This document shows, piece after piece, positions 1-15,011 of a stretch of DNA of 64,000 nucleotides (within the stretch, counting starts at the first letter, position 1; the number at the start of each line of letters is the position of its first letter). The translations under genes were made by a program, and so were the position numbers. The stretch covers positions 2,464,001 to 2,528,000 of the forward strand of contig CAWIAD010000001.1 of the NCBI GenBank assembly GCA_963833985.1, given 5' to 3'. The stretch is from an uncultured Planctomycetaceae bacterium. GTDB lineage: Bacteria; Planctomycetota; Planctomycetia; Isosphaerales; Isosphaeraceae. Below the pieces are notes generated by a model, which saw only the letters and a list, made by a program, of their open reading frames with translations, was not told where the DNA came from and did no database searches.

Positions 1-868
1 CCACCAACAACCGGTTATGGTTCACCAGATTCCCCGCTTCATGGCGGTGGAGAAAAAAGCCAAGAAGTTTAGCAAGATCGCTCTGCTGGTACTCGACGGC
101 CTTGCCTTTGATCAATGGCTTCTACTCAGGAAGAATCTCGAAGTCGGCGACAAAGCATGGCGGTTCCGCGAATCGACGGCGTTCGCCTGGGTTCCGACTC
201 TCACGTCAGTCACCCGTCAGTCAATCTTTGCCGGAGAACCGCCGCTCTACTTCCCGGATTCTCTCGCGACGACCGCAAAGGAGAAGGCCCACTGGCTGAG
301 GTTCTGGGAGGACCAAGGCGTTCCTCGTGCCAGCATCGATCTGGTTACGAGCCTCGATGGTCCGAACGATTCGAAGCTGGAGACGGCTCTCGGCAACCCA
401 CGACTCTCGGTCCTGGGCATCGTATGGAACAAGGTCGATGACATCATGCACGGAATGCAGATGCAGACGGCCGGGATGCACAACCAGGTGCGTCTGTGGG
501 CTAGTCAGGGCCATTTGCAACAACTGCTCGCCCGTCTTCACGAGGAGGGCTTCGTCGTCTATCTGACCGCCGACCACGGAAACGTCACAGCCACCGGCGT
601 TGGCAATCCGAAGGAAGGCGTTCTGGTGGAAACCAAAGGCAAGAGGGTCCGTGTTTACGATCGTGTCCAGTTCCTTGAGGAAGTTGCAGTCAAGTTTCCC
701 GATTCGGTGCGATGGACGAATCAGGGGCTACCCCCGGCTCGGTACGTTCTCCTGGCGGGCGACCTGAAGGCATTCACGGACGAAGGCGAGGAAGTTGTGT
801 CCCACGGCGGGATCGCCCTGGAAGAAGTCATGGTGCCGTTCGTGGCGATCACCAGGGAGAGGACATGA
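1..868 (+). CDS. pglZ: BREX (type 3-like) PglZ phosphatase-domain protein, C-terminal part (5' end outside window)
   Basis: Alkaline-phosphatase-fold PglZ motifs: LLVLDGL, PTLTSVTRQSIF, YLTADHGN, SHGGIALEEVMVP. Confidence 0.9.
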   Translation, partial: HQQPVMVHQIPRFMAVEKKAKKFSKIALLVLDGLAFDQWLLLRKNLEVGDKAWRFRESTAFAWVPTLTSVTRQSIFAGEPPLYFPDSLATTAKEKAHWLRFWEDQGVPRASIDLVTSLDGPNDSKLETALGNPRLSVLGIVWNKVDDIMHGMQMQTAGMHNQVRLWASQGHLQQLLARLHEEGFVVYLTADHGNVTATGVGNPKEGVLVETKGKRVRVYDRVQFLEEVAVKFPDSVRWTNQGLPPARYVLLAGDLKAFTDEGEEVVSHGGIALEEVMVPFVAITRERT

Positions 869-2343
869 GGAAGGTCCTCGGAATCGACAGGAAGATCAAA
901 AGGGCGTGGGTCGATGCGGTGCTGGACCGGCTGACGCAAACGACGGACGAGACGGAACTGCGCGCCTTCTTGGATGAGCTCCTGAAGGACGAAGTCTCCG
1001 GTAAGGAGTCGAGGGCCAAGACGACCGGGATCATCCTGCGAATCTGGAGCGGAATCCCATCAGCAAGAATCCCGCTGCGTGACCGGGCCGTGGCGATGCT
1101 GCCTCGCATCTCGGGGCAGGAACGAATCTGGCTGCATTGGGGTATGATGGTACTGGCGTACCCGTTCTTTCGAGACATTGCCGAAGTCGTCGGTCGCCTC
1201 TTGTCGCTCCAGGACGATTTCACCACGGCTCAGGTACAGGGCCGAATACTCACGACCTGGGGAGACCGGGCCACGAGCAAGGTAGCGGTGCCGAAGCTCA
1301 TAACGACCCTCGTGGATTGGGAGGTCCTTCGCTCGACGAAGACGAAGGGTCACTTTCTCCTGGCCCGGAAGATGACCGCCAGTACCCCAGACCTGCAACT
1401 CTGGCTGCTCGAAGCGCTTCTGGGGGCCAGCGCGGCCGATGAAATTGAGGCCCAGCAGTTCTTGCGTCTGCCCGAGTCGTTTCCGTTCAACCTGAGCATT
1501 GGGCTTGCTGATCTTCGACGACATGAAGGCTTTAACATCCATCGTCAAGGACTCGACATGGATATGGTCTCGCTACGGCCGGTGAAGAAGACCATCCCAG
1601 TGAAGTCTCCGAAGAAGCCTGTTAAGAAGCCCAAGCAGGCAGCGCCCAGCGTGTTTGATGCGATTTCTGTCGAGACACCGAAGTACCCCGTCGCTCAACA
1701 GATCGTCCAAGAGGTTGTCGAGGTCGCTCCTGTCCCCACGGCGGAACTTCATCCGAACCTCGAACCGTTCATCGCCTCCAAGATGGTTCCGCCCATTGAA
1801 TTGGCAATGTCCGAGCCAGACCGGACCGAGTCGCGGGCAGATTTCGTTACGACAGAGAGGTTGACGATCGTCAGGGATCTGGACCTCTCGGTCAACGTAC
1901 CGTTCTCGGCTCCGATCGGCGAATGTGTGAGACTCTTCCATGAAAGTCTCGACTTCGCGTGTATCGCCTTGGCTCACGACACGATCGACGCTATTCTGCG
2001 GCTTGTTTGCAAAGTGAAACTCGGCGCAAGGCAGGCCAAGTGTGCCGACATACGCAACCAATTCGGAGGTCTGACAGCGATCGGCGTGCTGCCGATTCCC
2101 ATGAAGACCAGACTCGAAAAGCTCTGGTACGAGCGAGTCGATTACCTGGAACTGAACATGGCCGAGCCTTCCGATCAATCGGCGATCGAGGAAGTGGCAT
2201 CGAGCCACATCTCGGTTCTGGTCGAACTCGTTCGTCACTTCCTTGGGCAATCGTCGGTTCAAGGCAAAGTTCTACCCGATCACCCGGAGTACTGGAACCA
2301 AGTCAAGAAAAGGCTCACATTCAAAGCCGAAACGGCAGGGTGA
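865..2343 (+). CDS. BREX-3 BrxA-like protein with a long C-terminal extension
   Basis: ATG at 865 overlaps the pglZ stop (ATGA). N-terminus GIDRKIKRAWVD...RIW...LHWGMMVLAYPFF...WGDR resembles the gene that follows pglZ in type 3 BREX. A Lys/Pro-rich linker and an extra helical domain follow. Confidence 0.7.
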   Translation: MRKVLGIDRKIKRAWVDAVLDRLTQTTDETELRAFLDELLKDEVSGKESRAKTTGIILRIWSGIPSARIPLRDRAVAMLPRISGQERIWLHWGMMVLAYPFFRDIAEVVGRLLSLQDDFTTAQVQGRILTTWGDRATSKVAVPKLITTLVDWEVLRSTKTKGHFLLARKMTASTPDLQLWLLEALLGASAADEIEAQQFLRLPESFPFNLSIGLADLRRHEGFNIHRQGLDMDMVSLRPVKKTIPVKSPKKPVKKPKQAAPSVFDAISVETPKYPVAQQIVQEVVEVAPVPTAELHPNLEPFIASKMVPPIELAMSEPDRTESRADFVTTERLTIVRDLDLSVNVPFSAPIGECVRLFHESLDFACIALAHDTIDAILRLVCKVKLGARQAKCADIRNQFGGLTAIGVLPIPMKTRLEKLWYERVDYLELNMAEPSDQSAIEEVASSHISVLVELVRHFLGQSSVQGKVLPDHPEYWNQVKKRLTFKAETAG

Positions 2344-2641
2344 CCGAAGGAGCCGAGTGGGTCTGGGCGAGTTCCTTGATGTAGGCCGAGACGTGGAAGC
2401 TCTTGATGTCCTTGAGGGCGAGCCGTCGGGCCTCGGACCACTCGAAGAACCGCCGGGCGTTCCGGTAATAGGCCGCCCGCGTGTTCTTGTTGCGGATCGT
2501 GTCCGTGAAGAACGTGAAGAACCGCTCGGACGCCTTCGGCCCCTCGTCGGCGATGACGGCGGGGATGGTCGTCGTGGCGGCCCGTTCGATGGTCGCCGGG
2601 AGCGGAGCGTCGTCGGTCGTCAGGTTCCGGTTCTTGAGCAT
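2341..2641 (-). pseudogene. Truncated tyrosine recombinase/resolvase (N-terminal SAM-like domain only)
   Basis: RFFTFFTDTIRNKNTRAAYYRNARRFFEW...HVSAYIKELAQTHSAPSV, then homology ends at the brxA stop. No catalytic R-H-R-Y domain. Confidence 0.75.
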
Positions 2642-2680
2642 TTCGGTCCTCGGCCTGGGTCCCCTGCCCGGTCCCCATTT

Positions 2681-2708
2681 TAGTCGCATAACGCCCTTTA
2701 TGCGAGCC
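2681..2708. promoter_or_regulatory. dif/res-like tyrosine-recombinase crossover site
   Basis: TCGCATAA-CGCCCT-TTATGCGA: perfect 8-bp inverted arms around a 6-bp spacer, 40 bp upstream of the recombinase ATG. Confidence 0.6.
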
Positions 2709-2952
2709 ATATCGGACCAGGGAAGGGGGCGGCAAGAGTGGATTTTTTGCAGCGTCCCTCGGCCAGAGAATCCACCCCAGAAACGCGAAACCCACCGGCG
2801 GTCGAGCCGATTTACAGACATCGCATGCGGGCATGCATTTTGTCCGTGGATGTTGACAGACCAATGACCCATTGACACGGCCCTCGGGACCGTAGATTTT
2901 GAGGCATGTTTCCCTGGTTTGCGATACGCACCGTGTTTAGAGGAGTCCGCCG

Positions 2953-3339
2953 ATGTCGGATGCCGCGTCGAAAGGGAGGCCTAACTCGTCTGCCGAACTC
3001 ACGCTGAACGAGCTTCAAGCGGTCGACCCTGAAATCTTGAAGGAGCTGCAGGAGAAGTATGGACTTGAGATCCAGGTCCGGTCAAACAGCGAAGCCATCA
3101 ACCAACTCTTGCAGGGAGTTGGGCGCACGGCCGCCCTCAGCCCCCAGGAGTTCACCCGCGGCTTTGATCGGACCAACCCCGGGTACGACAAATTCTATGA
3201 CCGCGACGGACCTGGTGGTGGTGGTTCCCGAGAGCAAGTGACTAAGCCAATCGAGAACCTGCTTGCCGTCTCACTGCAGGAGGCGATTAAGTCGTTGTCG
3301 GCAGAACAACTGGCCACAATCAAGAAGCTACACGGCTAA
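2953..3339 (+). CDS. Putative RiPP precursor (128 aa; leader, internal aromatic-X-Arg/Lys core, follower)
   Basis: AGGAG RBS at 2941. Core FTRGFDR-TNPG-YDKFYDR (3151-3204) followed by GPGGGGS. Lies directly upstream of a radical SAM gene. Confidence 0.7.
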   Translation: MSDAASKGRPNSSAELTLNELQAVDPEILKELQEKYGLEIQVRSNSEAINQLLQGVGRTAALSPQEFTRGFDRTNPGYDKFYDRDGPGGGGSREQVTKPIENLLAVSLQEAIKSLSAEQLATIKKLHG

Positions 3340-3562: not shown

Positions 3563-4777
3563 ATGGTTTCGCTTGCTCCACAGTTGCTCCACCTCAGTAC
3601 AGAGGCTGCAGCTTATGTACGGCCGGCCAACTACCTCCTGGTTAAGCTGGCGGCGAGGTGTAACCTCAAGTGTTCTTACTGCTACTGGTTCCGCGACCCG
3701 AGCGTCTATGGGCGACCCAAGGTCATGACTGAGGAGGTCGAGGCGGCGCTCTTGGAAAAGCTACAGCGACACCTCGTTAACTATGGCCTAGACCGATTCT
3801 ATTTGCTGTTTCACGGGGGTGAGCCGACTCTTTTCGGTCGAGATCGCTTCGAGCAGCTCACCGGCCGTTTGCGGGCACTGGAGGCACGTCTTGGGGTGCA
3901 GTTACGTCTGGCGATGACGACTAACGGCTTGCTGCTCGACGACGATTGGATAGACGTCCTGAAACGCCACCAAGTCTCGGTGACACTGAGCTTCGATGGT
4001 CCGCCGCAAGTTAACGACACGCGGCGGATCGACTTCGTCGGTCGGGGCTCGCTCCAACAGAGCGTGGCCGCCCTTCAGCGTCTTCGTGCTGCGGACCTCG
4101 AGCCGGGTGTACTAGCCGTCTGCGATCCGACCCAGGAACCCAGGCTCGTTACCGATTACTTCGTCCAGGAGTTGCACATCCAGGAGTTCGACATCTTGGT
4201 TCCCGATGCTACGCATGAAGACCATACCGTCTCGATCGCCGATTACTATAAGCGGCTCTTCGACATCTGGTTGGACGAACTGGCCCCGCGCGGGGTGCGC
4301 ATCCGCTATCTCGATAGCCTCATCGCAGGTCTGGCCGGCTACGAGAGTCACTCGGAGTCAATCGGCTACGGTCCCAACCTGCACTTTACGATGCTCACCG
4401 ACGGCAGCCTCGAGGCGCTCGACACGGTGCGAATTGCCGGACCGGGGATTACAAACAGTTGTCTAAACATCCTCACCGATGAGATCCAGGACTTGGTCCG
4501 TGACCCGTTCTGGCGGGAGCTGCTCGAGGCCTCAGTCCATCTGCACAGGCAATGCGAGCAGTGTGTGTACCGCTCTGCTTGCGGTGGAGGGCACATCGCG
4601 TCGCGCTGGTCGAGGGCGAATCGCTTTGACAACCCGAGCGTTTACTGCCGGGATCTCATCGAGATCCTCCGCCACATTTGGCAGAGGATGGCACCAGACC
4701 TTTACTTGGTCGGCATTCCTCCGGACGCGGCGTGCAACTCGGGGTCACCGCAGAATCCTGCCAAGAGCATACACTAA
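3563..4777 (+). CDS. Radical SAM/SPASM peptide maturase, FxsB/YhhB-like (cyclophane-forming)
   Basis: CNLKCSYC, FHGGEP, TTNG, SFDGP, TDGSLEALD, CEQCVYRSACGGG, FDNPSVYCRDL. Confidence 0.85.
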   Translation: MVSLAPQLLHLSTEAAAYVRPANYLLVKLAARCNLKCSYCYWFRDPSVYGRPKVMTEEVEAALLEKLQRHLVNYGLDRFYLLFHGGEPTLFGRDRFEQLTGRLRALEARLGVQLRLAMTTNGLLLDDDWIDVLKRHQVSVTLSFDGPPQVNDTRRIDFVGRGSLQQSVAALQRLRAADLEPGVLAVCDPTQEPRLVTDYFVQELHIQEFDILVPDATHEDHTVSIADYYKRLFDIWLDELAPRGVRIRYLDSLIAGLAGYESHSESIGYGPNLHFTMLTDGSLEALDTVRIAGPGITNSCLNILTDEIQDLVRDPFWRELLEASVHLHRQCEQCVYRSACGGGHIASRWSRANRFDNPSVYCRDLIEILRHIWQRMAPDLYLVGIPPDAACNSGSPQNPAKSIH

Positions 4778-4829
4778 GTTCAAGTTTCGCGAATTCTGAG
4801 GCGGTTCGCGCGTGCCGAGGAGCAAGCCT

Positions 4830-5990
4830 ATGGCCAGTCCCTACGTTTTGGTTCCCCCACCTGTATCGTTCGAGCCCTTCCCTTACTTCCAAGCTGCGCC
4901 GGTGATTCAGAAATATAATTGTGACGAACTGTTTACGTGGCTGAGTGCGGAGGCTCCCTGGCGATACCACCAGGAGTGTTTCTACCAGCAGATGGAATGC
5001 GATCTTCTGACGACGGAGCTTACTGGTCTCGCATCGCGGCTGTTCGACCCCGAGGCTCTGGCCGAACTCGTAGCCATCATGGAGGCGAGCTTCGGCGAGG
5101 TGCTCGACCAGCGGTTGAGTGTCGTCGCACACAAGCTACTGCCGGGCTACCAGATAAACATCCACAACGACGCGCCCGATCCGGGCATGGAGACACACCG
5201 CCTCGTTTTACAGCTAAATCCCCACGGTGTCCGGCCAGTCGGCGGAGACCTGGTGCTTTTCCGTAGCCGGTCGGAGCAGGACGTCCACGCCACGTTCGCT
5301 CCGGACTACAACACTGCGGTCGCCTTTGCCCTTTCGGACCGCTCCTACCACGCCGTGACTCCCGTCGAGACAGGGGTTCGCTATACGGTCGTCTACTCAT
5401 TCTGGACGAAGGACAGCGCGGAGGAAGCACGCCGGCGGGATGCCTCACTCGATGGCGAGGCCATCAAGACACTGGTCAGCATCCTCCAAGCCATCGGCGC
5501 GAACCGCGTTGCCCACAGCGACCGGACGCTGCTTGACCACCTACTAGGTACCTGCGAGCTTCTCCGCGCGTGGGGGTGCCGCCAGGCCGTGTGTGTGGCT
5601 GGGCTGTTCCACAGCGTGTACGGCACCGAGAGCTTAACTACTACCCTCGTCCGGCCCGAAGAGCGCGGCTTGCTCTGCGGGCTGATTGGCCCGGAAGCCG
5701 AAGAGCTGGTGCATCTGTTCGGAACTACTGCGCGGTTGACCCTCTTCGAGCGGTCAGAGGAAGGATGCGTGTTGCAGCTCCGCTCCACACGGGCTGACGA
5801 CTGGCTCACGGTTACACCCCAGCAGGCGCAGGACCTCCTCGCGATCAGCGCGGCTAACTTCGTCGAACAGGCGGCACGCGCTGAGCCCCCATTCTATCCG
5901 AACGACCCGAGTGTTACTGGCTACCAACGATTAGCAGGGCTCCTGCCCGAGCGGGCACGTGGTACTTTGGCACGCTTGGGAGCCTTGTGA
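4830..5990 (+). CDS. 2OG-Fe(II) oxygenase (YhhC-like) fused to a C-terminal HD-like (DUF6817-like) domain
   Basis: GAGGAG RBS. EPFPYF, HND...SYHAV...RYTVVYSF facial-triad and 2OG-binding motifs. C-terminal HSDRTLLDHL...AGLFHSVYGTE. Confidence 0.8.
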   Translation: MASPYVLVPPPVSFEPFPYFQAAPVIQKYNCDELFTWLSAEAPWRYHQECFYQQMECDLLTTELTGLASRLFDPEALAELVAIMEASFGEVLDQRLSVVAHKLLPGYQINIHNDAPDPGMETHRLVLQLNPHGVRPVGGDLVLFRSRSEQDVHATFAPDYNTAVAFALSDRSYHAVTPVETGVRYTVVYSFWTKDSAEEARRRDASLDGEAIKTLVSILQAIGANRVAHSDRTLLDHLLGTCELLRAWGCRQAVCVAGLFHSVYGTESLTTTLVRPEERGLLCGLIGPEAEELVHLFGTTARLTLFERSEEGCVLQLRSTRADDWLTVTPQQAQDLLAISAANFVEQAARAEPPFYPNDPSVTGYQRLAGLLPERARGTLARLGAL

Positions 5991-5997
5991 GGGTTCC

Positions 5998-7154
5998 ATG
6001 CCCTGGCCTGCGATCGAACTCCATGCATATGAGCAATGCAGCCAGATGGTGCTTGACCAACTCGCTGCGGCCGGCGCAGGTGACACCGCACACGCTGGCG
6101 CCAGCCTGCTCGTGCACCTTCGCAATACCCAGAAGATCCTGGAACGCTGGCAATGCCCACCCGGGCTCTGCCTGGCCGGTCTGTGCCACAGCGTCTATGG
6201 TGCCGTGTTCCCCCTCCGTCAAGCCGCCCGCCGGCGTGTGGCTGACTGGATCGGGGCCGAGGCTGAGCGCGTTGTCTGGTTCATCGCTACCGTGCACGCT
6301 GATGAGGTCGCGCGTCGGCTACTGGTCGTACCGACCGGTGACGCTAACATGATTTTGGCTCGTGCTGCCCTCGTGCTAGTGGCCAGCGACTTCGAGCAAC
6401 TCGGTCGCGTGCTGTTGTCCCCACGTCAGATCGAGCAACAACGACACCTCGCCATCCAGTGTCTACACTGGCTGCCCGAAGACGCCCGTGCCGACCTAGT
6501 GCGGCTCTACGCGGTTAGCCCCGACTCTACCGACACCGACTGGTCTCGCAGTACCGCCGAGGTCTATGACGCTGAAGCACGTAGGTACAATGCCCTCCGC
6601 GAGCTCACCTCCGACGACGTTCAATTGCTCCAACTGGTCGAGAAGCTGCTGCCGCCCGGGCGCGGGTGCTCGATCTGGGTTGCGGCAGCGGCGAGCCGAT
6701 CATGCGCCGCCTAACCGGCCGTTTCACCGTTGTAGGTCTGGACATCTCCAGCGAGCAACTAGCCCTAGCGCAACGCGCCCGAATAACAGCGCGGCTTGTG
6801 CGAGCCGACATGCTGCACCTGCCCTTCCCCGACTCGGCGTTCGATGGCGTGTGCTCCTACTATGCCATCGTTCATGTACCGCGCGTGAGACACGCACTGA
6901 TTCTTCGCGAGCTGCGCCGCGTGTTACGGCCAGGTGGCTGGGCACTCATTTGCCTTGGGGCCAAAGACGTCCCGGCCTGGCAAGACGTAGCCTTGCTCGG
7001 CCGCCCGATCTTGTTCAGCCATTACGACGTTAATGAGAACCTCGAGATGCTCGCGGAGCAGGGTCTGGCTATCCGTTGGTCATATATCGTGGGCGCAGAC
7101 ACTGCAGCGGCATTTCTCTTCGCTCTGGTTCAGGCTGAGGAGGACCCTGCGTGA
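5998..7154 (+). CDS. HD-like (DUF6817-like) domain fused to a class I SAM methyltransferase (frameshift near 6660)
   Basis: HAGASLLVHL...AGLCHSVYG in the first ORF. VLDLGCGSG, GLDISSEQL, LRRVLRPGG in the second. One extra G at CCCGGG^CGCGGG joins them as LPPGARVLDLGCG. Confidence 0.7.
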
Positions 7155-8164
7155 TACCCGATAGACTGGTCCTGGAACGGCGATGCTTCCCGACCCGGAT
7201 TGCAGCCGAGCGCGCTTTACGTGGGCTCTACCGTGATCGGTGGCCCGTGCTGGTCGGCGAGACCGCCCACGAGCGGCTTTATTGCATTGAAGACGCGTTA
7301 GTCGGCCGCCCAGCTCGCGATCCGAATCTCGCCTGCAACCTTCGAGAAATCCTAGGGATTAGCCCGGAAGAGGCGGCCCACTTCCGCAGTTTTCGGGCCA
7401 GACATGGCGGTTGCAGGCTCACTACATTGCAGCACACGTGGGCACTAGAGGCCCTGAGCAAATGGGCCACGAGGCGTCACCCCGGCGATCCACCGCCTCT
7501 GTTACTGCACGTGGACGCGCACGACGACCTTCAGCCGCCCAGTCTCGTTGCAACTACTGATCCATGGATCTACCAAGCACCTGTAGGTGGGGACGTACTC
7601 GACCTCCACGACCCAGCTACGGTATCTCCGTTCGTAGAGCGTGGACTCATCGGCATTGGGGGCTTCCTGGTTCCAATCCTGCACGCCTTGGTAGCCGCTC
7701 AGGTCGTGTGGTTGCACCCACTTGAGGTTCGGCCCGCAAATACTCAGGCCAGCCTGCGGTCCGCCACCGAGCCATTTCTATTTTTTGGAGGGTGCTTCCA
7801 ACGGCCGATCATTGAGGTCGAGCCATGTGACGTAGAATCGGCCCATCCTTTACGCCTGCTCGCGACGGATAACTTGTCGTCCCTAGTATCGTGGCTCACG
7901 CCAGGCCCCGTGCTCGTTGACATCGACTTCGATTACTTCTGCAACCTCTATGACGATAGCCAGGTTCGGCCCCAAGAGCCACCGTCCCACAATGAGGTAT
8001 TAGACCACATCGATCGGTTCGCCAGCGAGTTGGGTCGCATCCTGAGGAACCACCGCGTCGAGCTTGTCACACTAGCGTTGTCGCCAGAATTCTTCCCGTC
8101 TGCCTACTGGCCCAGGTGCCTTGAGAGGCTCGAGGAACTCGGCGATTGTTTACTCGAAGCGTAG
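7151..8164 (+). CDS. UPF0489-family arginase/deacetylase-fold enzyme (peptide-arginase-like)
   Basis: QHTWAL, LLHVDAHDDL, LVDIDFDYFCN, LVTLALSPEFFP. Start overlaps the upstream stop (GTGA). Confidence 0.7.
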   Translation: MIPDRLVLERRCFPTRIAAERALRGLYRDRWPVLVGETAHERLYCIEDALVGRPARDPNLACNLREILGISPEEAAHFRSFRARHGGCRLTTLQHTWALEALSKWATRRHPGDPPPLLLHVDAHDDLQPPSLVATTDPWIYQAPVGGDVLDLHDPATVSPFVERGLIGIGGFLVPILHALVAAQVVWLHPLEVRPANTQASLRSATEPFLFFGGCFQRPIIEVEPCDVESAHPLRLLATDNLSSLVSWLTPGPVLVDIDFDYFCNLYDDSQVRPQEPPSHNEVLDHIDRFASELGRILRNHRVELVTLALSPEFFPSAYWPRCLERLEELGDCLLEA

Positions 8165-8572: not shown

Positions 8573-9960
8573 TCATGAGCTATCGAGAATGGGAATGCGT
8601 TGACGTTCTTCGTGCCCGGGTCGGGCGGCTCGCCAGATCGTTTGCAGGTAACCCACGCCACAGCCGGGGCAGCGGTCCTCGACCAGAACCGCGGCTGGCG
8701 GCGCAGCGGGGGACGAGGCGAGCGAGGCCGTGTCAGCCGATGCGACAATGAGCGAAACCAGGACCACCAGTATGGAAATGCCCATGCGTGACGGCGATGC
8801 CGACTCGAACTCGACCAGAGACGGCGCTGGTCCCGCCCCAGTTGGCGACTGGTCGCTGTCCGTCGAACCACGACTGTCGCCCGATGGCGGCGACTTGGTC
8901 TCTGGGGCCGCCAGCGCGCGGCACAACGCCAAGCGCTCACCGCGATCTCGGTGGGCCAAGATTCCATATTGCCGAATCCGCACCAACCCCTTGGGAATAA
9001 TGTGCATCGCGAACCGGCGCACGAATTCCACCGCGTCCAGCGTCATCTCCTTGCGTCGGCAACCGTCGGCATAGTCCTTCCAGGTGAAGGTGACCCGATC
9101 GTTCTGGAGCTTCACCAGGCGGCGATTGCTCAAGGCGACTCGGTGCGTGTACCCAGTTAAGTACTTAAGCACCTGTTCAGGTCCGCCGAAGGGTTCCTTG
9201 GCAAAGACGATCCATTCCTTCTGGTACAACGCTCGTATCAATGCCCCCCAGGCCGCCGGGCTCTTCAGGGGCAAGGTGCTCCCCGCGAACTGGAGTTGGC
9301 CGGCTTGGTAAGCCGCGCGCAAGGCCGCCAGGTACTTGCCGCGGAAAACCGGGCTGAGAACCTTGACCGACAAGAACCAGTTGGGCCGGCACGACACCCA
9401 GCGTGGTGCCTGGTCGCCAGGGTCAGTCGCGGCGTTTCCCGAGGTTTTGGCGGGGACCGCCAACCCGCCGCCGGGCACCACACAGTGAACGTGGGGATGA
9501 TGCTCGAGCTGCTGCCCCCACGTGTGCAAGACCATCAGCACCCCGATCCGTGCTCCCAGGTGCTTGGGGTCGGCCGCCACCTCCATGAGAGTCTCCTTGG
9601 CGGCGTCGAAGAGCAGCCGATACAAGAACTGGCGGTTGCCCAAGGCCAGCGCGCTGAGCTCGTGGGGCAAGGTGAAGACGACGTGGAAGTAGGGCACGGG
9701 CAGGAGGTCGGCCTGACATTTGGCCAGCCAGGCTGCCCGCTTGCTCCCACCGCACTGGGGACAGCTTCGGTTGCCGCAGGAATGATAGTGGTACCGTACC
9801 TCGCTGCAGTGATCGCACTGGGTGACGTGACCGCCCAGGGCGGCCGTGCGGCAGAGCGCCAGGTCGTGTAGCGTCTGCCGCACATGGGGGCACTGGGGCC
9901 AACGGTTCAGGAACTCGGCTCCATACCGCCGCACGAGTTGACCGAAGGTCAGGGGCTGGT
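8573..9960 (-). CDS. IS91-family transposase (start approximate)
   Basis: Zn-binding CRTAALGG...CDHC...HSCGNRSCPQC, YFHVVFTLP, LHTWG...HPHVH (HUH), YLTGYTHR, RIRQYG. Confidence 0.9.
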
Positions 9961-10803
9961 CGATGGACCCTGCGGCGGGGGCAGACGGTCGAGCGGGCTG
10001 ACCACCTGTCGCAGTCCCGCCAAGGTGACGTGCGTGTATAGAGCCGTGGTCCCGATCCGATGATGGCCCAGCAAAGCTTGAATCGTGCGGGTGTCGACTC
10101 CCGCTTCCAGGAGATGGGTGGCATGGCAGTGGCGCAGAGTGTGCGGTGTGATCCGCGGCAGGCCCGCGTCGCGGCAGGCCCGCTTGCAGGCTTTCTGCGC
10201 CGTCGCGGCGTTCAGGGGTCGATGGCGATCCTTGCCCGGAAACATCCATTCTGTCGGCCTCGTTGCACGCCAGTAGGCACGCAGTTCTTCCAGGAGTCGA
10301 GGGGAGAGTGGCACCAGCCGTTCCTTCTGTCCCTTGCCCACCACCCGCACCACCATTCGGCTGCTGTCGATCTGTGCGGCGGTCAGGTGCAAGGCTTCGC
10401 TGATCCGTAACCCGGTGGCGTAGATGGTCCGCAGTACCATCCGGACGGTCCGGTCGCGCACGGTGTCGAGGAAGAGGGCCACCTGTTGGGGTGAGCGGAC
10501 CGCCGGCAACAGTTTGGGCCGCTTGCCGTAGGGGAGCCGTGTGACCACCGTGTCACTGGGATAGGTTACCCGATAAAAGAAGCGGAGGGCGGCCACGGCC
10601 TGATTGTAGGACGACCACGAGACCTTTCTGTGGTGGAGAAGATGCAGCAGATAGCGATGGACCTGCTCGTTGTCGAGTTGATCGGGGGATTGGTTGAAGT
10701 GGCGTGCCAGCTCGCGGAGGTGGAAGACGTAAGCCTCGATGGTCTTGGGCGAGCGGTTGCGTAGCTGAAGGTCTTCGATCAAGTGTTGCCGGAGCGGAGT
10801 CAT
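9949..10803 (-). CDS. Tyrosine recombinase/site-specific integrase associated with the IS91 transposase
   Basis: LQLRNRSPKTIEAY, YATGLRISE, GKGQKER, PHTLRHCHATHLLEAG, LLGH...TALYTH. Confidence 0.92.
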   Translation of the reverse strand: MTPLRQHLIEDLQLRNRSPKTIEAYVFHLRELARHFNQSPDQLDNEQVHRYLLHLLHHRKVSWSSYNQAVAALRFFYRVTYPSDTVVTRLPYGKRPKLLPAVRSPQQVALFLDTVRDRTVRMVLRTIYATGLRISEALHLTAAQIDSSRMVVRVVGKGQKERLVPLSPRLLEELRAYWRATRPTEWMFPGKDRHRPLNAATAQKACKRACRDAGLPRITPHTLRHCHATHLLEAGVDTRTIQALLGHHRIGTTALYTHVTLAGLRQVVSPLDRLPPPQGPSTSP

Positions 10804-11015
10804 GGTGAGGATTCCCGTGGAAAGCAAGAAAATCGCGTGGTCAGACCGCCGCGACAAACATGCCACAGGAAGGGCTCTGGCGCAAATCGTCATAACCGGA
10901 ATGATCGGCACAACCGGTATCAGGTGGGGAGAGGAGGAAAAAGCGCCCCGCGAGCGAGGAAAGGGCAAGGGTCGGTAAGGTCTACCGTAAGGTTTCGTTC
11001 AACTATAGGTTTTAC

Positions 11016-11135
11016 GGGGGGGTGATTCAGCGCACTTCTTAACCAACTCGGGGGGGCGATTCAGCGCACCAGGGGGGGGGATTCAGCGTGGATAACTTCG
11101 TTAACGGACCGACTTATCCACAGGGGGTGACCGCA
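11016..11135. promoter_or_regulatory. Plasmid-type replication origin: iterons and DnaA boxes
   Basis: Three G-run-GATTCAGCG direct repeats (~11016, 11050, 11072). Perfect DnaA box TTATCCACA at 11114-11122 and an inverted 8/9 box at ~11087-11095. Lies next to the 3' end of repA. Confidence 0.7.
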
Positions 11136-11164
11136 CGCCCAATCCTGCCAGACTGAAGGTTGCC

Positions 11165-12097
11165 TTACTGATCGGGGGGGGGTGACTCGCGGAGGAGGAT
11201 GCCACCGGGAACGTCTTCGATCCTGGCGTCTGGATAAACGAGCCAGACCTTCCGTAGGACATCGCGGAACTCCCGTTTGAAGTCCTTGGAGTTTTTGTAT
11301 TCCTGGCCGAATTGCTCTCGCAGGTTCTCCCAACTCAGCATGACTCCGCCTGGCTGTCTGATCCGGCAGAGCCGGTGGGCCAGCCACGTGTAAACGTCGA
11401 GAGCAAGGGCCGAATGCTTGAGGGCCGAGAGTGCCCGATAATCGAGGGGCACCGCGTGCTGGGCCAGTGTCTCGTAGAAATCGGTCGAGAGTTCCAGGAC
11501 GCCGGGCCACAAAGTCTGCTGTTGCCCGTCGTGTTGAAACCAAGCCTCGAATCGCTTGATCGGCTTGGCATCGACCGTGACGACCTTTCCCTGGGAACTC
11601 ATCCCGATGGTTAGGCGGCAAGCGGCCAGAGCTTCCATCTGCTTCCGAAACGTAGTGTATCCGCCGCGTTCGCCGCCGTTGGTCTGAATGCCCAGTGTCT
11701 GCAAGAATTGCCGCATGCTGTCGCCCAGTTCGACGCGACGGTCTTGCGTGCGGATCGCTTCGGAACTGAGGTGGACCATGACGAGGCGGGGCGTAGTCCC
11801 GTAGGGCAACGGTTGCGGCTTCCATTCCTTGCCGGTCCACAGTTTACCGGCTTCGAGCAGGATGCTGAACGGGCCATTATGCCGCTCGAAGACGCGAGCC
11901 TCAGTTGCTCGTCGCGGCATTCCGACCTGGCACATCACGGTGTGCAGGAAGTCGGTTCGATCGGGTGGCTCGCTGAGGATTCGGTCGTAGGCTTCGACGA
12001 TTCGATCGGCCACGGGACGACGTGAACGCTTCGGGGCTTCCCTCGTCGTGAGCGAATCTTGGCTTTGGAATTGTGCTTCAGGTTCCTGTGTGGTCAC
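11165..12097 (-). CDS. repA: Plasmid replication initiator RepA (RepA_C/IncW-like)
   Basis: FLHTVMCQVGMP, LPYGTTPRL, LWPGVLELSTDFY...HAVPLD, ALDVYTWLAHRL, LREQFG. Confidence 0.85.
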   Translation of the reverse strand: MTTQEPEAQFQSQDSLTTREAPKRSRRPVADRIVEAYDRILSEPPDRTDFLHTVMCQVGMPRRATEARVFERHNGPFSILLEAGKLWTGKEWKPQPLPYGTTPRLVMVHLSSEAIRTQDRRVELGDSMRQFLQTLGIQTNGGERGGYTTFRKQMEALAACRLTIGMSSQGKVVTVDAKPIKRFEAWFQHDGQQQTLWPGVLELSTDFYETLAQHAVPLDYRALSALKHSALALDVYTWLAHRLCRIRQPGGVMLSWENLREQFGQEYKNSKDFKREFRDVLRKVWLVYPDARIEDVPGGILLRESPPPDQ

Positions 12098-12419
12098 TAT
12101 CGCAATTACGGGTTGTTACAAAATCGTCTTTCTGCATTTCCGTGATGGGCGCACTTGCGGTCACCACGGGTTCACTTGCTCGCTCGACTGCTGGACTCTC
12201 CGGTTTGAATCGCTTTTCAAGAAGTGCTCGAACCACGTCCGCCATCTGGTCGCCGTTCAAGGCACACTGGCTCTTGACCCGCTGGTGAAGTGACTTGGGT
12301 ATGTCGATCGTGAGCCGCTTCATCGGTTCATTTGAACGCGATCGGTCGGAGATCCAGTCGTCGGGCGAGGTTGGTCCAGACGTCGATGTTGGTTTGCGGC
12401 CGATGGTGATCTTCTTCAT
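12078..12419 (-). CDS. Ribbon-helix-helix partition protein (ParG-like)
   Basis: MKRLTIDIPKSLHQRVKSQC...MADVVRALL; translationally coupled to parA. Confidence 0.75.
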   Translation of the reverse strand: MKKITIGRKPTSTSGPTSPDDWISDRSRSNEPMKRLTIDIPKSLHQRVKSQCALNGDQMADVVRALLEKRFKPESPAVERASEPVVTASAPITEMQKDDFVTTRNCDSDHTGT

Positions 12420-13045
12420 GCGGCGAAAACCACGATTTCATCTACCAAGGCGAGCAGTTCCTTTCCTGCCGGGTGGTTTGGGGCCGTCTCGAAGACGGTC
12501 TGTCCCTGGGCGGCCGACTCCGCCAGGGCGACCCGCTGGCAGATCGCGGTATTCATCACCGGGATCGGATAATCGGCCAGAGCATCGACCACGTCACACC
12601 CGAGAGCCGTATTCACGATTTTGCGATTAATCGCAAAGGCGGATTTCAGGTCCGGTTTGAAGACCGTGGCCTCTTGCATGAGGTCGATAATCTCCTTCGC
12701 GGCCCAAACGTCGTAGGGCGAAGGTTGCACGGGCACCACCACCAGGTCGCTCGCCATGATCGCGGATCGGGCCACGTCGTAAACACGGGGCGGGCCGTCG
12801 ATGATCACGACGTCGTAACCTCGGGCTAGAGTTGGCAGCTCTTTGTGGAGAGATGCCCTGGGCAGTCCGGCGACGGGGAACAACGATTCACCCCGGCGAG
12901 CGGCTGCCCAATCGAGGGCCGAGCCTTGAGGGTCGGCGTCGACGAGCAGGACGCGCTGATGGCAACGGGCGAGTGCTTCGGCGACATGGATCGCGAGGGT
13001 CGTCTTACCCACGCCGCCTTTTTGGTTGAGAAAACTAACGATCAT
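12416..13045 (-). CDS. parA: ParA/ParF-type partition ATPase
   Basis: NQKGGVGKTT, VDADPQGS, IIDGPP, PVQPSPYD. Confidence 0.92.
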   Translation of the reverse strand: MIVSFLNQKGGVGKTTLAIHVAEALARCHQRVLLVDADPQGSALDWAAARRGESLFPVAGLPRASLHKELPTLARGYDVVIIDGPPRVYDVARSAIMASDLVVVPVQPSPYDVWAAKEIIDLMQEATVFKPDLKSAFAINRKIVNTALGCDVVDALADYPIPVMNTAICQRVALAESAAQGQTVFETAPNHPAGKELLALVDEIVVFAA

Positions 13046-13142
13046 TGATGCCTCTCTGAAATACGATTTTGCGGAATTGCGATTCACCGAGTAGCACGAT
13101 TTTTCGAGATGGTCAAACACGAAGTTGAAGGCAGGCGTCTTC

Positions 13143-13951
13143 TCCGAGTAGAGAGGGGACGCACAGCAAACCACCGAAGCTGGATTATCCCAATGTCCAT
13201 GAAGCGTCTGGGATAGACGCGCTCCGGGTTCCTGTGTTTTCCCCTCCCCCTCTGAAATTCCGTACGGCGGGTTTTCCCCAGTACGGCTTCAAACAGGAAT
13301 TCGACCGCGACCTTCGCCGCCCAGCGGTTAAGCAGAGCAACTTATACGCGGCCAAAGTCTCGCTCGTCTTCCACCTAAAATGGACCTTGCGGTCAAGACC
13401 TCCCCGCGAGGGGAAGCTAAGAAGGAAAATCCCCAAGACAATCCTGTCCAGAGGTCCTTGGCTCGCCAGCGGGTTATCCTGTCCCGCCGGGTCATCGCTT
13501 ACTATGACCTCATCAGCGCCTCTCCCTCCCACTCGGCAACTTATGAATTTGCTGTCGAGTCCTCCAACCCAGATGGGCGGGGAGGGAGAGGGTCCCCATT
13601 TTACTTGGCGTGTCGGTTCATGCGTGCCATCCCCAGAACCCCGGTGGACCGGTCGGCTGCACGTGGCTGTTGCTTCACCGACCGTAGTAGCCTTCGCCAT
13701 TTCCGCCGAGGCTCGGCATCCACAGCGCCACGGAAGTTGGTTCACCCGTGGACAGTGTAACGGGGCGGACAGGTTCGCTTTCGCTACGGCCCGCATGATT
13801 GCTAGCCCCTCACCAACAAAGGACGTTTACGATCAAGCTTTCGCTGGGCGAGTCACCCCAACCCAACGTCGATTATGACTACGCGGGCAAACAGCCTATT
13901 CCCGCGGCCGGACTCACACCGGCAAGACACACCACCTTATGGGCTGCAAAC
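13143..13951 (-). ncRNA. Group II intron lacking the RT ORF (internally deleted)
   Basis: Domain V GAAGCCGTACTGGGGAAAACCCGCCGTACGGAATTTC (13254-13290, minus). Domain VI stem GAGGGG...CCCCTC with a bulged A and a CTACTCG end. Intron-like D2/D3 stretch at ~13440-13520. 5' end GTTTGCAGCCC. Only ~810 nt long. Confidence 0.75.
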
Positions 13952-15011
13952 GGAAACACAGAGGTGCGGAAACACGATTTTCCGCACTCCGTTCCAGTCC
14001 ATCGCGGGCCTCGACGCCCGCTGGAACGGTTCCAGTGGGCCTATGCAGTGCATAGGGAAGACGCCTGAACCTTGAAGGGGTCTTGTCGGAGATCAAAACG
14101 CGGAAGCTCTGGCTTCCTCGACGGTAGCGATTGATCGAGGTCTTTGGGCTTGTAAAGGGACCAGGATTTCGACCGGGAGGCGGACGAATTGAACTCGCGT
14201 CTGACTGATGTCATGAGGGACCACGAAACAGCGACGATGACGAGCAGCCGAGGATGGCTGCCACCACAGCCGACGGATCGAAGTCCGATCAAAGAAAACG
14301 GGGCTGACCAAGATCGCCACGGACAACGCCGAGATCGGTTCATCCGGCACGAAACATCTAATCGTAGGGTCCGGGTATTGTCGGCCTGGAGGCATGGTGC
14401 AAAGGCCGATCGGCTGTGCCGTTGAGCGACCGACGGGAGCGACCCTGAACCGGCGAACCCTTCTTGCCTTTCTCCCTCGTATCCCCGGCGGGGACGGAAG
14501 GGGGAACAGCACGAAGCGCCGCGTACTCGCGGCCACCGCTCAAGCAAACCGGCCGGTTTCGCCCCCCATGAGACATGGGGCGAAACTGAGACGGAACAAA
14601 CATCGGCCGGAGCCCAGCGACCCACCGCCAGGCGACGAACGCGCGGCCCGGATGAACGACATGGAAGTTGGGCGTCCGGGTCGCCCGTCGCCGATCGCAC
14701 CAGTGGGATAAGCGAGGACATAGGGCAACGCGGCTCGAAGACCCCGCCTTGACTTTGGCAGCGTCCTGAGCGCGGGTCTTGAAAGCGAGAAGACGCAAGT
14801 ACGCCCGCAAGCCTTGGGTTCCGGTTAGTCAATCTCCTCCGTCTGCGGCGTTACAGACTGACGGTTGATCCCACCTGGAACCGGTAGATTCTCGAACTCT
14901 CAAGAGACTTGGCGTTTGGGGCTTGATCGAAATCGGACGGTGTGATGCGGATGTCGGCGAGAGTGAGGGCGCTGAGCATGGCACGGGCGGCACGATGGGT
15001 CGTTTGGGCCA

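Follow-up and report, generated by a model that had tools for sequence, protein, structure and literature searches.

The window analysed here, a stretch of 64,000 nucleotides, contains a putative RiPP precursor gene (P0001) followed on the same strand by genes for a radical SAM (rSAM) enzyme and for candidate tailoring enzymes. The features are as follows.

2940-2945, forward strand: ribosome-binding-type GAGGAG, 8 nt before the precursor ATG.
2953-3339, forward strand: RiPP precursor gene P0001, 128 aa, with 94 core-bearing homologs.
2953-3150, forward strand: leader, residues 1-66, with a helix pair (18-36), an extended segment (38-44) and a helix (47-55).
3151-3204, forward strand: core, residues 67-84, with FTR at 3151-3159 and FDR at 3163-3171, then the hinge TNPG at 3172-3183, YDK at 3184-3192 and YDR at 3196-3204.
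3205-3228, forward strand: D85 and the GPGGGGS linker, the least conserved region.
3238-3249, forward strand: follower motif VTKP, residues 96-99 (family consensus VINP).
3268-3336, forward strand: follower tail, residues 106-128, a predicted helix pair that appears to resemble leader residues 16-37.
3563-4777, forward strand: radical SAM cyclophane synthase, YhhB/ChlB-like, without an N-terminal RRE and without a HEXXH fusion.
4812-5990, forward strand: YhhC-type 2OG/Fe(II) oxygenase fused to a SmaX-type DUF6817 domain (YhhC and DUF6817 models).
5998-7154, forward strand: second DUF6817 domain with a class I methyltransferase, start approximate, split by a frameshift.
7151-8164, forward strand: peptide arginase-like protein with PF12640 motifs, below the family cut-offs.

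Translation of positions 3151-3204 gives FTRGFDRTNPGYDKFYDR, residues 67-84 of the open reading frame, laid out as the heptad FTRGFDR, the tetrapeptide TNPG and the heptad YDKFYDR. This agrees with an earlier sequence-only reading, according to which both heptads fit aromatic-x-[RK]-x-aromatic-D-R with TNPG between them. That reading had also described a 66-aa leader and a follower of about 36 aa, both of which we recover (the follower as residues 93-128, 36 aa), and a GPGGGGS linker directly after the core, which is incorrect in that D85 intervenes. No NCBIfam or Pfam family was matched by the precursor above cut-off. Over the stop-free six-frame stretches of its own genome (10.9 million residues) we counted 82 single heptads and one double, the P0001 frame itself, with 0.004 doubles expected, and none of 200,000 shuffles of the precursor protein contained two heptads; these chance figures are flattering because the pattern itself was derived from the observation. 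Promoter and terminator scans gave results at chance level. AlphaFold2 placed helices at residues 18-23, 26-36, 47-55, 108-114 and 117-127 (pLDDT 81-94 for leader residues 11-50), with a low-confidence core, a pTM of 0.34 and no confident packing between the helical flanks. The model matched no PDB fold at E 0.001 (Foldseek) or at Z 2 (VIA-align), which is weak evidence; the best E of the precursor profile against PDB sequences was 0.021, and the ESM Atlas held no usable match for P0001 or its homolog P0087.

Three homolog searches yielded 98 proteins, 96 of which remained after removal of the long, unrelated P0049 and P0050; these rows are cluster representatives and not independent lineages. 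The core pattern was matched in 94 of the 96, so the conservation of the heptads, which the sequence-only reading had proposed as a check, was borne out and the interpretation as a RiPP core is supported. P0026 has the core with a longer spacer and P0028 has none. Precursors in 94/96 homologs carry three or four aromatic-X-[R/K] triplets, P0001 carrying four. The family consensus is [aromatic-D/T-R/K-x]-[F/Y]-D-R-T-x-P-G-Y-D-[R/K]-x-[Y/F]-D-[R/K], in which D72, R/K73 and D/N83 are invariant (94/94 each) and Y78 (93/94), P76 (89/94), T74 and G77 (87/94 each) nearly so. Mean modal frequency is highest in the TxPG hinge (0.79), followed by heptad 2 (0.74), heptad 1 (0.64), leader (0.41) and follower (0.37), and a core that is nearly fixed across distant phyla suggests a conserved target. 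Comparison of the 18 core codons of P0001 with those of eight related loci gives 6-11 synonymous changes and 2-4 non-synonymous ones; the excess of the former indicates selection on the peptide level. Since the codons differ, a DNA-level tandem repeat can be ruled out as the cause of the conservation.

The expectation that whole heptads would vary in copy number did not hold. Two heptads were present in 56/95 sequences, one in 39/95 and three in none, and the variable element is instead the first triplet: 55/94 homologs have four triplets, and 39/94 have three, the first being missing. Conservation of the TxPG hinge equals that of the heptads, three heptads occur in no homolog, and the first triplet is missing from 39/94; the stretch is therefore better read as a single predicted core of 18 residues with four aromatic-X-[R/K] triplets. 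An origin of the heptads by duplication is nevertheless well supported, since in 15 of 55 two-heptad homologs they are alike at 6/7 residues (identical at 3/7 in P0001). Together with the core of P0040, which repeats FDKTSPG, this likeness suggests that the ancestral unit may have been 11 residues long.

The rSAM protein scores 269 bits with the NCBIfam model for YhhB, which does not reach the cut-off of 445, 247 bits with FxsB and 201 bits with XyeB. Its nearest solved structure is ChlB (9GM3, E 5e-51). With the YhhB score under the cut-off and only 28% identity to an annotated YhhB, its linkage chemistry may differ. At least 415 relatives were found at E 1e-50. In an alignment of 98 of the 120 homologs listed, C33, C37 and C40 as well as C331, C334, C340 and C362 are invariant, as is D215 of the ILVPDA motif (98/98). 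This residue matches D214 in the LLPDA motif of HtkB, a number counted by hand on the available part of the printed gene. Asp214 of HtkB favours a basic residue at X3, and ChlB acts on its native YDR and also on FDR (PMC11499958). The invariant match of D215 supports the earlier proposal that Arg is a plausible rSAM target. YhhB joins Tyr C3 to the C-beta of Arg (PMC11002830) and WprB joins Trp to the C-gamma of Arg (PMC11851443).

The oxygenase passes the YhhC model (164.9 bits, cut-off 150), scores 86.9 bits with DUF6817 and has the motif H118-x-D120...H180. Matched by spacing to the published SmaX numbering (H31, H39, H63, T68, R104, N143, Q147; PMC12186529), all seven SmaX residues are present in the fused domain as H235, H243, H267, T272, R308, N349 and Q353. 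In related loci the positions of SmaX Arg104 and Gln147 are variable, and the SmaX-type domain has His-His-Asn in four of five and His-His-Asp in L002. YhhC is described to yield erythro-hydroxy-Asp, and the activity of SmaX was demonstrated with a flexible DGDG motif rather than with Asp locked in a ring (PMC12186529). The sequence-only reading missed both the YhhC/SmaX-type enzyme and the invariant Asp72, which by homology is a likely target of this enzyme. Three related loci (L003:4873-6666, L005:4413-6104, L006:2525-4120) have two DUF6817-like domains per oxygenase, the second with degenerate metal ligands.

The second DUF6817 domain of the window, joined to the methyltransferase, lacks the SmaX Thr and Asn. 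Its gene is interrupted by a frameshift in a G run between 6660 and 6666 and is a single intact gene in L001. The rSAM and arginase genes of L001 are frameshifted too, which indicates sequencing indels, and the frameshift in the window is possibly a sequencing error. The arginase-like protein carries QHTWAL, DAHDD and VDIDFDYFC at the places of the PF12640 motifs EEH(N/H)EAF, DXHXD and LDIDLDYFSC (PMC12703449); the first motif has diverged but kept its His, and all six metal ligands are present. Both family scores remain under their cut-offs (UPF0489 19.1 bits, cut-off 27; pept_arginase 14.3 bits, cut-off 350), and the counterparts in related loci score 17.1-26.5 bits. The six ligands and the recurrence of the gene in all five related loci that are long enough strengthen the suggestion, made earlier, that the core Arg may also serve an arginase-like enzyme. 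We found neither close second copies of the cluster enzymes in the same genome nor a peptidase or exporter in the cluster of the window.

The gene order precursor, rSAM, 2OG/DUF6817, arginase is shared by L001, L002, L003, L005 and L006, that is, by all five related loci of sufficient length; L004 shows precursor and rSAM and then ends, and L007 and L008 are too short to show gene order. Among the five, the methyltransferase occurs only in L001 and a protease-like gene adjoins the cluster only in L002, where a trypsin-like protease gene (13484-14293; 20.4 bits, cut-off 20.6) directly follows the arginase in a Microbispora cluster. The GC content of the cluster is 57-63%, against 65% for the genome, and the surrounding stretch is GC-poor; BREX pglZ precedes the cluster, which is flanked by an integrase fragment on one side and an IS91/integrase/RepA block on the other. 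This GC-poor island measures ~55 kb. Window positions 2-2343 hold the end of a BREX type 3 pglZ (382 bits, cut-off 250) and then a 491-aa gene without family match, the integrase fragment lies at 2321-2878 (reverse strand), and 8573-13174 (reverse strand) comprises the IS91 transposase with its integrase, RepA and a ParA-like gene. Horizontal acquisition is likely, since kin of the cluster are absent from 400 genomes of the same phylum and from 40 relatives, among which a single weak match (E 9e-4) was rejected for lying inside an unrelated 658-aa frame. The 250 further genomes searched from the family of the L002 genome contained no kin either, plasmids gave no match to the precursor and viral contigs none to a follower-less homolog. 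The family is thinly spread over Chloroflexia, Microbispora, Gammaproteobacteria, Dyadobacter, Sorangium, Asticcacaulis and Nitrospira. Its cultured carriers include Microbispora, Dyadobacter sp. Leaf189, Sorangium and Asticcacaulis.

Judged by its genes, the P0001 system appears to work like a Yhh triceptide, yet it is not a Yhh member. Aromatic-X2-X3 triplets lie next to an rSAM of the three-residue-cyclophane type, both of them marks of a triceptide. As in the Yhh systems (NF041707, NF041706; PMC11002830, PMC12186529), there is a YDR triplet for a predicted Tyr-to-Arg ring, an adjacent 2OG Asp hydroxylase that passes the YhhC model and, as in the minimal Yhh cluster, no peptidase. However, YhhA is short with a C-terminal core, and the annotated YhhA precursors end in YDR-x-HxR-HNR, whereas P0001 has only Phe and Tyr as aromatic residues, a TxPG hinge, a long leader and an optional follower. 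The additional DUF6817, methyltransferase and arginase also set the cluster apart. Strict membership was rejected: the rSAM score falls short of the YhhB cut-off, none of the 94 aligned precursors has a match to a YhhA model at E 0.01, and the precursor profile reaches a probability of just 0.9 against a YhhA (compare 85.7 for follower tail and leader below), the Tyr-His-His core type being absent.

The pairing of a 2OG enzyme with DUF6817, fused here, and the seven active-site residues recall the SmaO/SmaX cascade (PMC12186529). SmaA, however, belongs to the graspetide precursors and carries its modification at DGDG, whereas the ring Asp residues of P0001 lie in aromatic-D-[RK]; the DG/GD substrate motif of SmaO is not found in the core of P0001, whose sole DG, D85-G86, is private to it. 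YhhC-linked precursors likewise lack a DG/GD motif (PMC12186529). A table by Kim et al. 2025 (PMC12186529) lists, without tests, putative triceptide clusters with YhhC-SmaX fusions. Three enzymes named there (MBC8085711.1, WP_182882620.1, WP_208799491.1) are the rSAM homologs P0152, P0239 and P0240, so this cluster type is already on record; homologous precursors have neighbouring accessions (WP_056290293.1, WP_182882619.1, WP_208799492.1). The available text of that paper makes no mention of an arginase, a methyltransferase or a follower, and the word arginase does not occur in either of its supplements.

ChlB (PDB 9GM3/9GMC) and HtkB resemble the rSAM described here as three-residue cyclophane enzymes with an LPD motif, but their precursors and tailoring differ. 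HtkA offers a precedent for a follower in the 22-residue tail after its HTK motif, as read by eye from the available part of the printed gene. ChlB carries a fused HEXXH domain, whereas this rSAM has none. Minviopeptin (MicA-D, PMC12912966) is likewise a multi-triplet triceptide, and the C-terminal part of MicA, a further precedent for a follower, is removed in maturation; however, MicC is an oxidative cleavage enzyme acting at Gly and MicD an ADP-ribosylating one, and neither type of enzyme was detected in the P0001 cluster. The arginase-like protein shares three motifs and six metal ligands with the PF12640 peptide arginases OspR, FlmR, OhkR and PbsE, but P0001 is none of the precursor types described for them (NHLP, N11P, SCIFF, SCCRRSCN, DD(I/V)LF and MGXRRSSE; PMC12703449). 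In the triceptide, arginase, aminomalonate and DUF6817 literature searched we found neither a study of the P0001 family nor an occurrence of the core sequence strings, though earlier triceptide studies may list the precursor.

We consider it probable that the core matures to a tetracyclic triceptide whose residues include aminomalonate and ornithine and that the follower is a likely optional accessory, a proposal whose chemistry is drawn from homology. The rSAM would bind the leader and join each aromatic ring to the C-beta of the Arg or Lys two residues on. That such rings form is very likely, and we lean towards all four being closed (F67-R69, F71-R73, Y78-K80 and Y82-R84), with the TNPG hinge keeping two bicyclic halves apart. 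The YhhC-type domain would very probably beta-hydroxylate the ring Asp residues D72, D79 and D83, and the fused SmaX-type domain would probably cleave hydroxy-Asp to aminomalonate. Conversion of ring Arg to ornithine by the arginase is likely. Only tentatively, and provided that a sequencing error explains the frameshift, do we assign the methylation of ornithine or the capping of aminomalonate to the methyltransferase, which is confined to the P0001 subfamily; methyl-capped aminomalonate would be isobaric with Asp. Host proteases are the probable means by which leader and follower are removed. The follower, with its VINP-type motif and leader-like helix pair, would likely aid docking on one enzyme or shield the precursor.

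The follower varies strongly across the family. At least 15 residues come after the core in 73/94 homologs, 4-14 in 3/94 and at most three in 18/94, with follower lengths from 0 to 54; MBS0160841.1 is one of the follower-less homologs. The position of the core in the middle of the protein, emphasised earlier, thus applies to P0001 and is not a family constant. A conserved Gly linker was ruled out: at least three Gly within the first 10 follower residues occur in 3/94 homologs, and the Gly run is private to P0001. Sequence windows of the follower have hydrophobic moments of moderate size (0.26-0.42). Among the 73 followers of at least 15 aa, 61 have a VINP-type motif, compared with 6.6 in shuffles, and in 52 of these 61 it ends 13-15 residues past the core. 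As 76/94 homologs keep a follower and most long ones have this positioned motif, the follower is under selection in most lineages. L32 and G37 of the leader are nearly invariant (94 rows). In leader-only trees of 92 rows (two dropped for short leaders; columns few and support values rough), a fully supported clade of 14 follower-less rows lies inside the group of P0001, and the follower state changed at least twice, with up to five gains or losses. The follower is thus optional and not needed family-wide, and likely an accessory part as far as sequences tell. A single terminal Gly, possibly an amidation signal, ends 14 follower-less precursors after the last triplet (P0021, P0038, P0042, P0075, P0081, P0083, P0084, P0086-P0088, P0091, P0093-P0095).

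New here is the apparent resemblance of the follower tail to the leader helix pair, for which support is moderate because the compared pair was picked by eye. The profiles of tail residues 106-128 and leader residues 16-37 align with an hhalign probability of 85.7 (E 5e-6). The P0001 tail itself scores 5.2 bits on the leader profile, and seven of 67 followers of at least 20 aa, all from the P0001 subfamily, reach 5.2-13.2 bits, scores attained by at most 1/200 shuffles; three further subfamily members score about 2 bits. As controls from the same genome, 18/3158 C-termini and 60/9474 internal pieces reach 5.2 bits, a rate of 0.6%, which falls to 0-0.04% at 12.3 bits.

This resemblance, its low control rate and the positioned VINP-type motif would fit a follower that is a required second recognition element in the P0001 subfamily, with its tail docked from the opposite side at the same rSAM site (or at a tailoring enzyme), which would bring both core halves within reach. 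The sequence-only reading had suggested such a role, and the leader-like repeat lends it some support. However, the nearest leaders belong to follower-less four-triplet precursors, the seven scoring followers are close kin, and amphipathic helices look alike. In addition, the follower-less P0038, P0042 and P0081 apparently share assemblies with the rSAM homologs P0145, P0138 and P0167, respectively, suggesting that this enzyme family can act on precursors that lack a follower. We therefore regard a required role as unlikely. An uncut, modified mini-protein, also raised by that reading, would have its flanking helix pairs packed together or across two copies, with the stapled core as a loop. 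The helical prediction of both flanks (pLDDT about 85-94), the leader-like tail and the cluster without peptidase or exporter are compatible with it, and the 224-nt gap before the rSAM gene would permit excess precursor. On the other hand, plain yhhABC clusters likewise have no peptidase, characterised triceptides are cut before the first ring (PMC12912966), 18/94 homologs do without the follower, whose length is so variable, and the low pTM and lack of a PDB fold match, weak evidence as they are, also argue against a packed fold. An uncut product is thus less likely than a trimmed one, and we rate it as improbable.

Alternatively, the cyclised and hydroxylated peptide might stop at hydroxy-Asp and keep its Arg, or the rSAM might form a different linkage (to C-gamma, or with a spacing other than i, i+2), and the cluster may be decaying. 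The sub-threshold scores of rSAM and arginase, the WprB precedent (PMC11851443), the frameshift at 6660-6666 and the mobile-element flanks would agree with this. Nevertheless, both the SmaX-type domain and the arginase have kept their metal ligands, in the window as well as in related loci. Four of the five genes are uninterrupted, and the two other frameshifts of L001 indicate sequencing indels. We consider this alternative very unlikely. A bolder version of the proposed tetracyclic triceptide also seems unlikely to us: a precursor bracketed by two helix-pair recognition copies, with a core of four aromatic-aminomalonate-ornithine cyclophanes and a methyl cap, as an uncut or doubly docked mini-protein. 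If true, it would unite three chemistries otherwise not found together in the literature searched and be an example of a leader duplicated as a follower.

What makes the tetracyclic triceptide proposal interesting is mainly what would happen to Asp and Arg; that the core is placed centrally is of little importance by itself. The system would be a test case for an Asp-to-aminomalonate cascade and a peptide arginase acting inside strained three-residue cyclophanes; if the proposed chemistry is true, 18 residues would carry up to ten or more modifications. The family offers natural controls with three or four triplets, with or without a follower and with or without a methyltransferase. At L007 (177-1304) no stop codon separates the precursor homolog from a 376-aa frame that looks unrelated and has no Pfam match; either the contig is chimeric or the two are fused. 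At one locus, L003, two FKBP-type prolyl isomerase genes (1349-2929) lie directly upstream of the precursor, the core of which has a conserved Pro.
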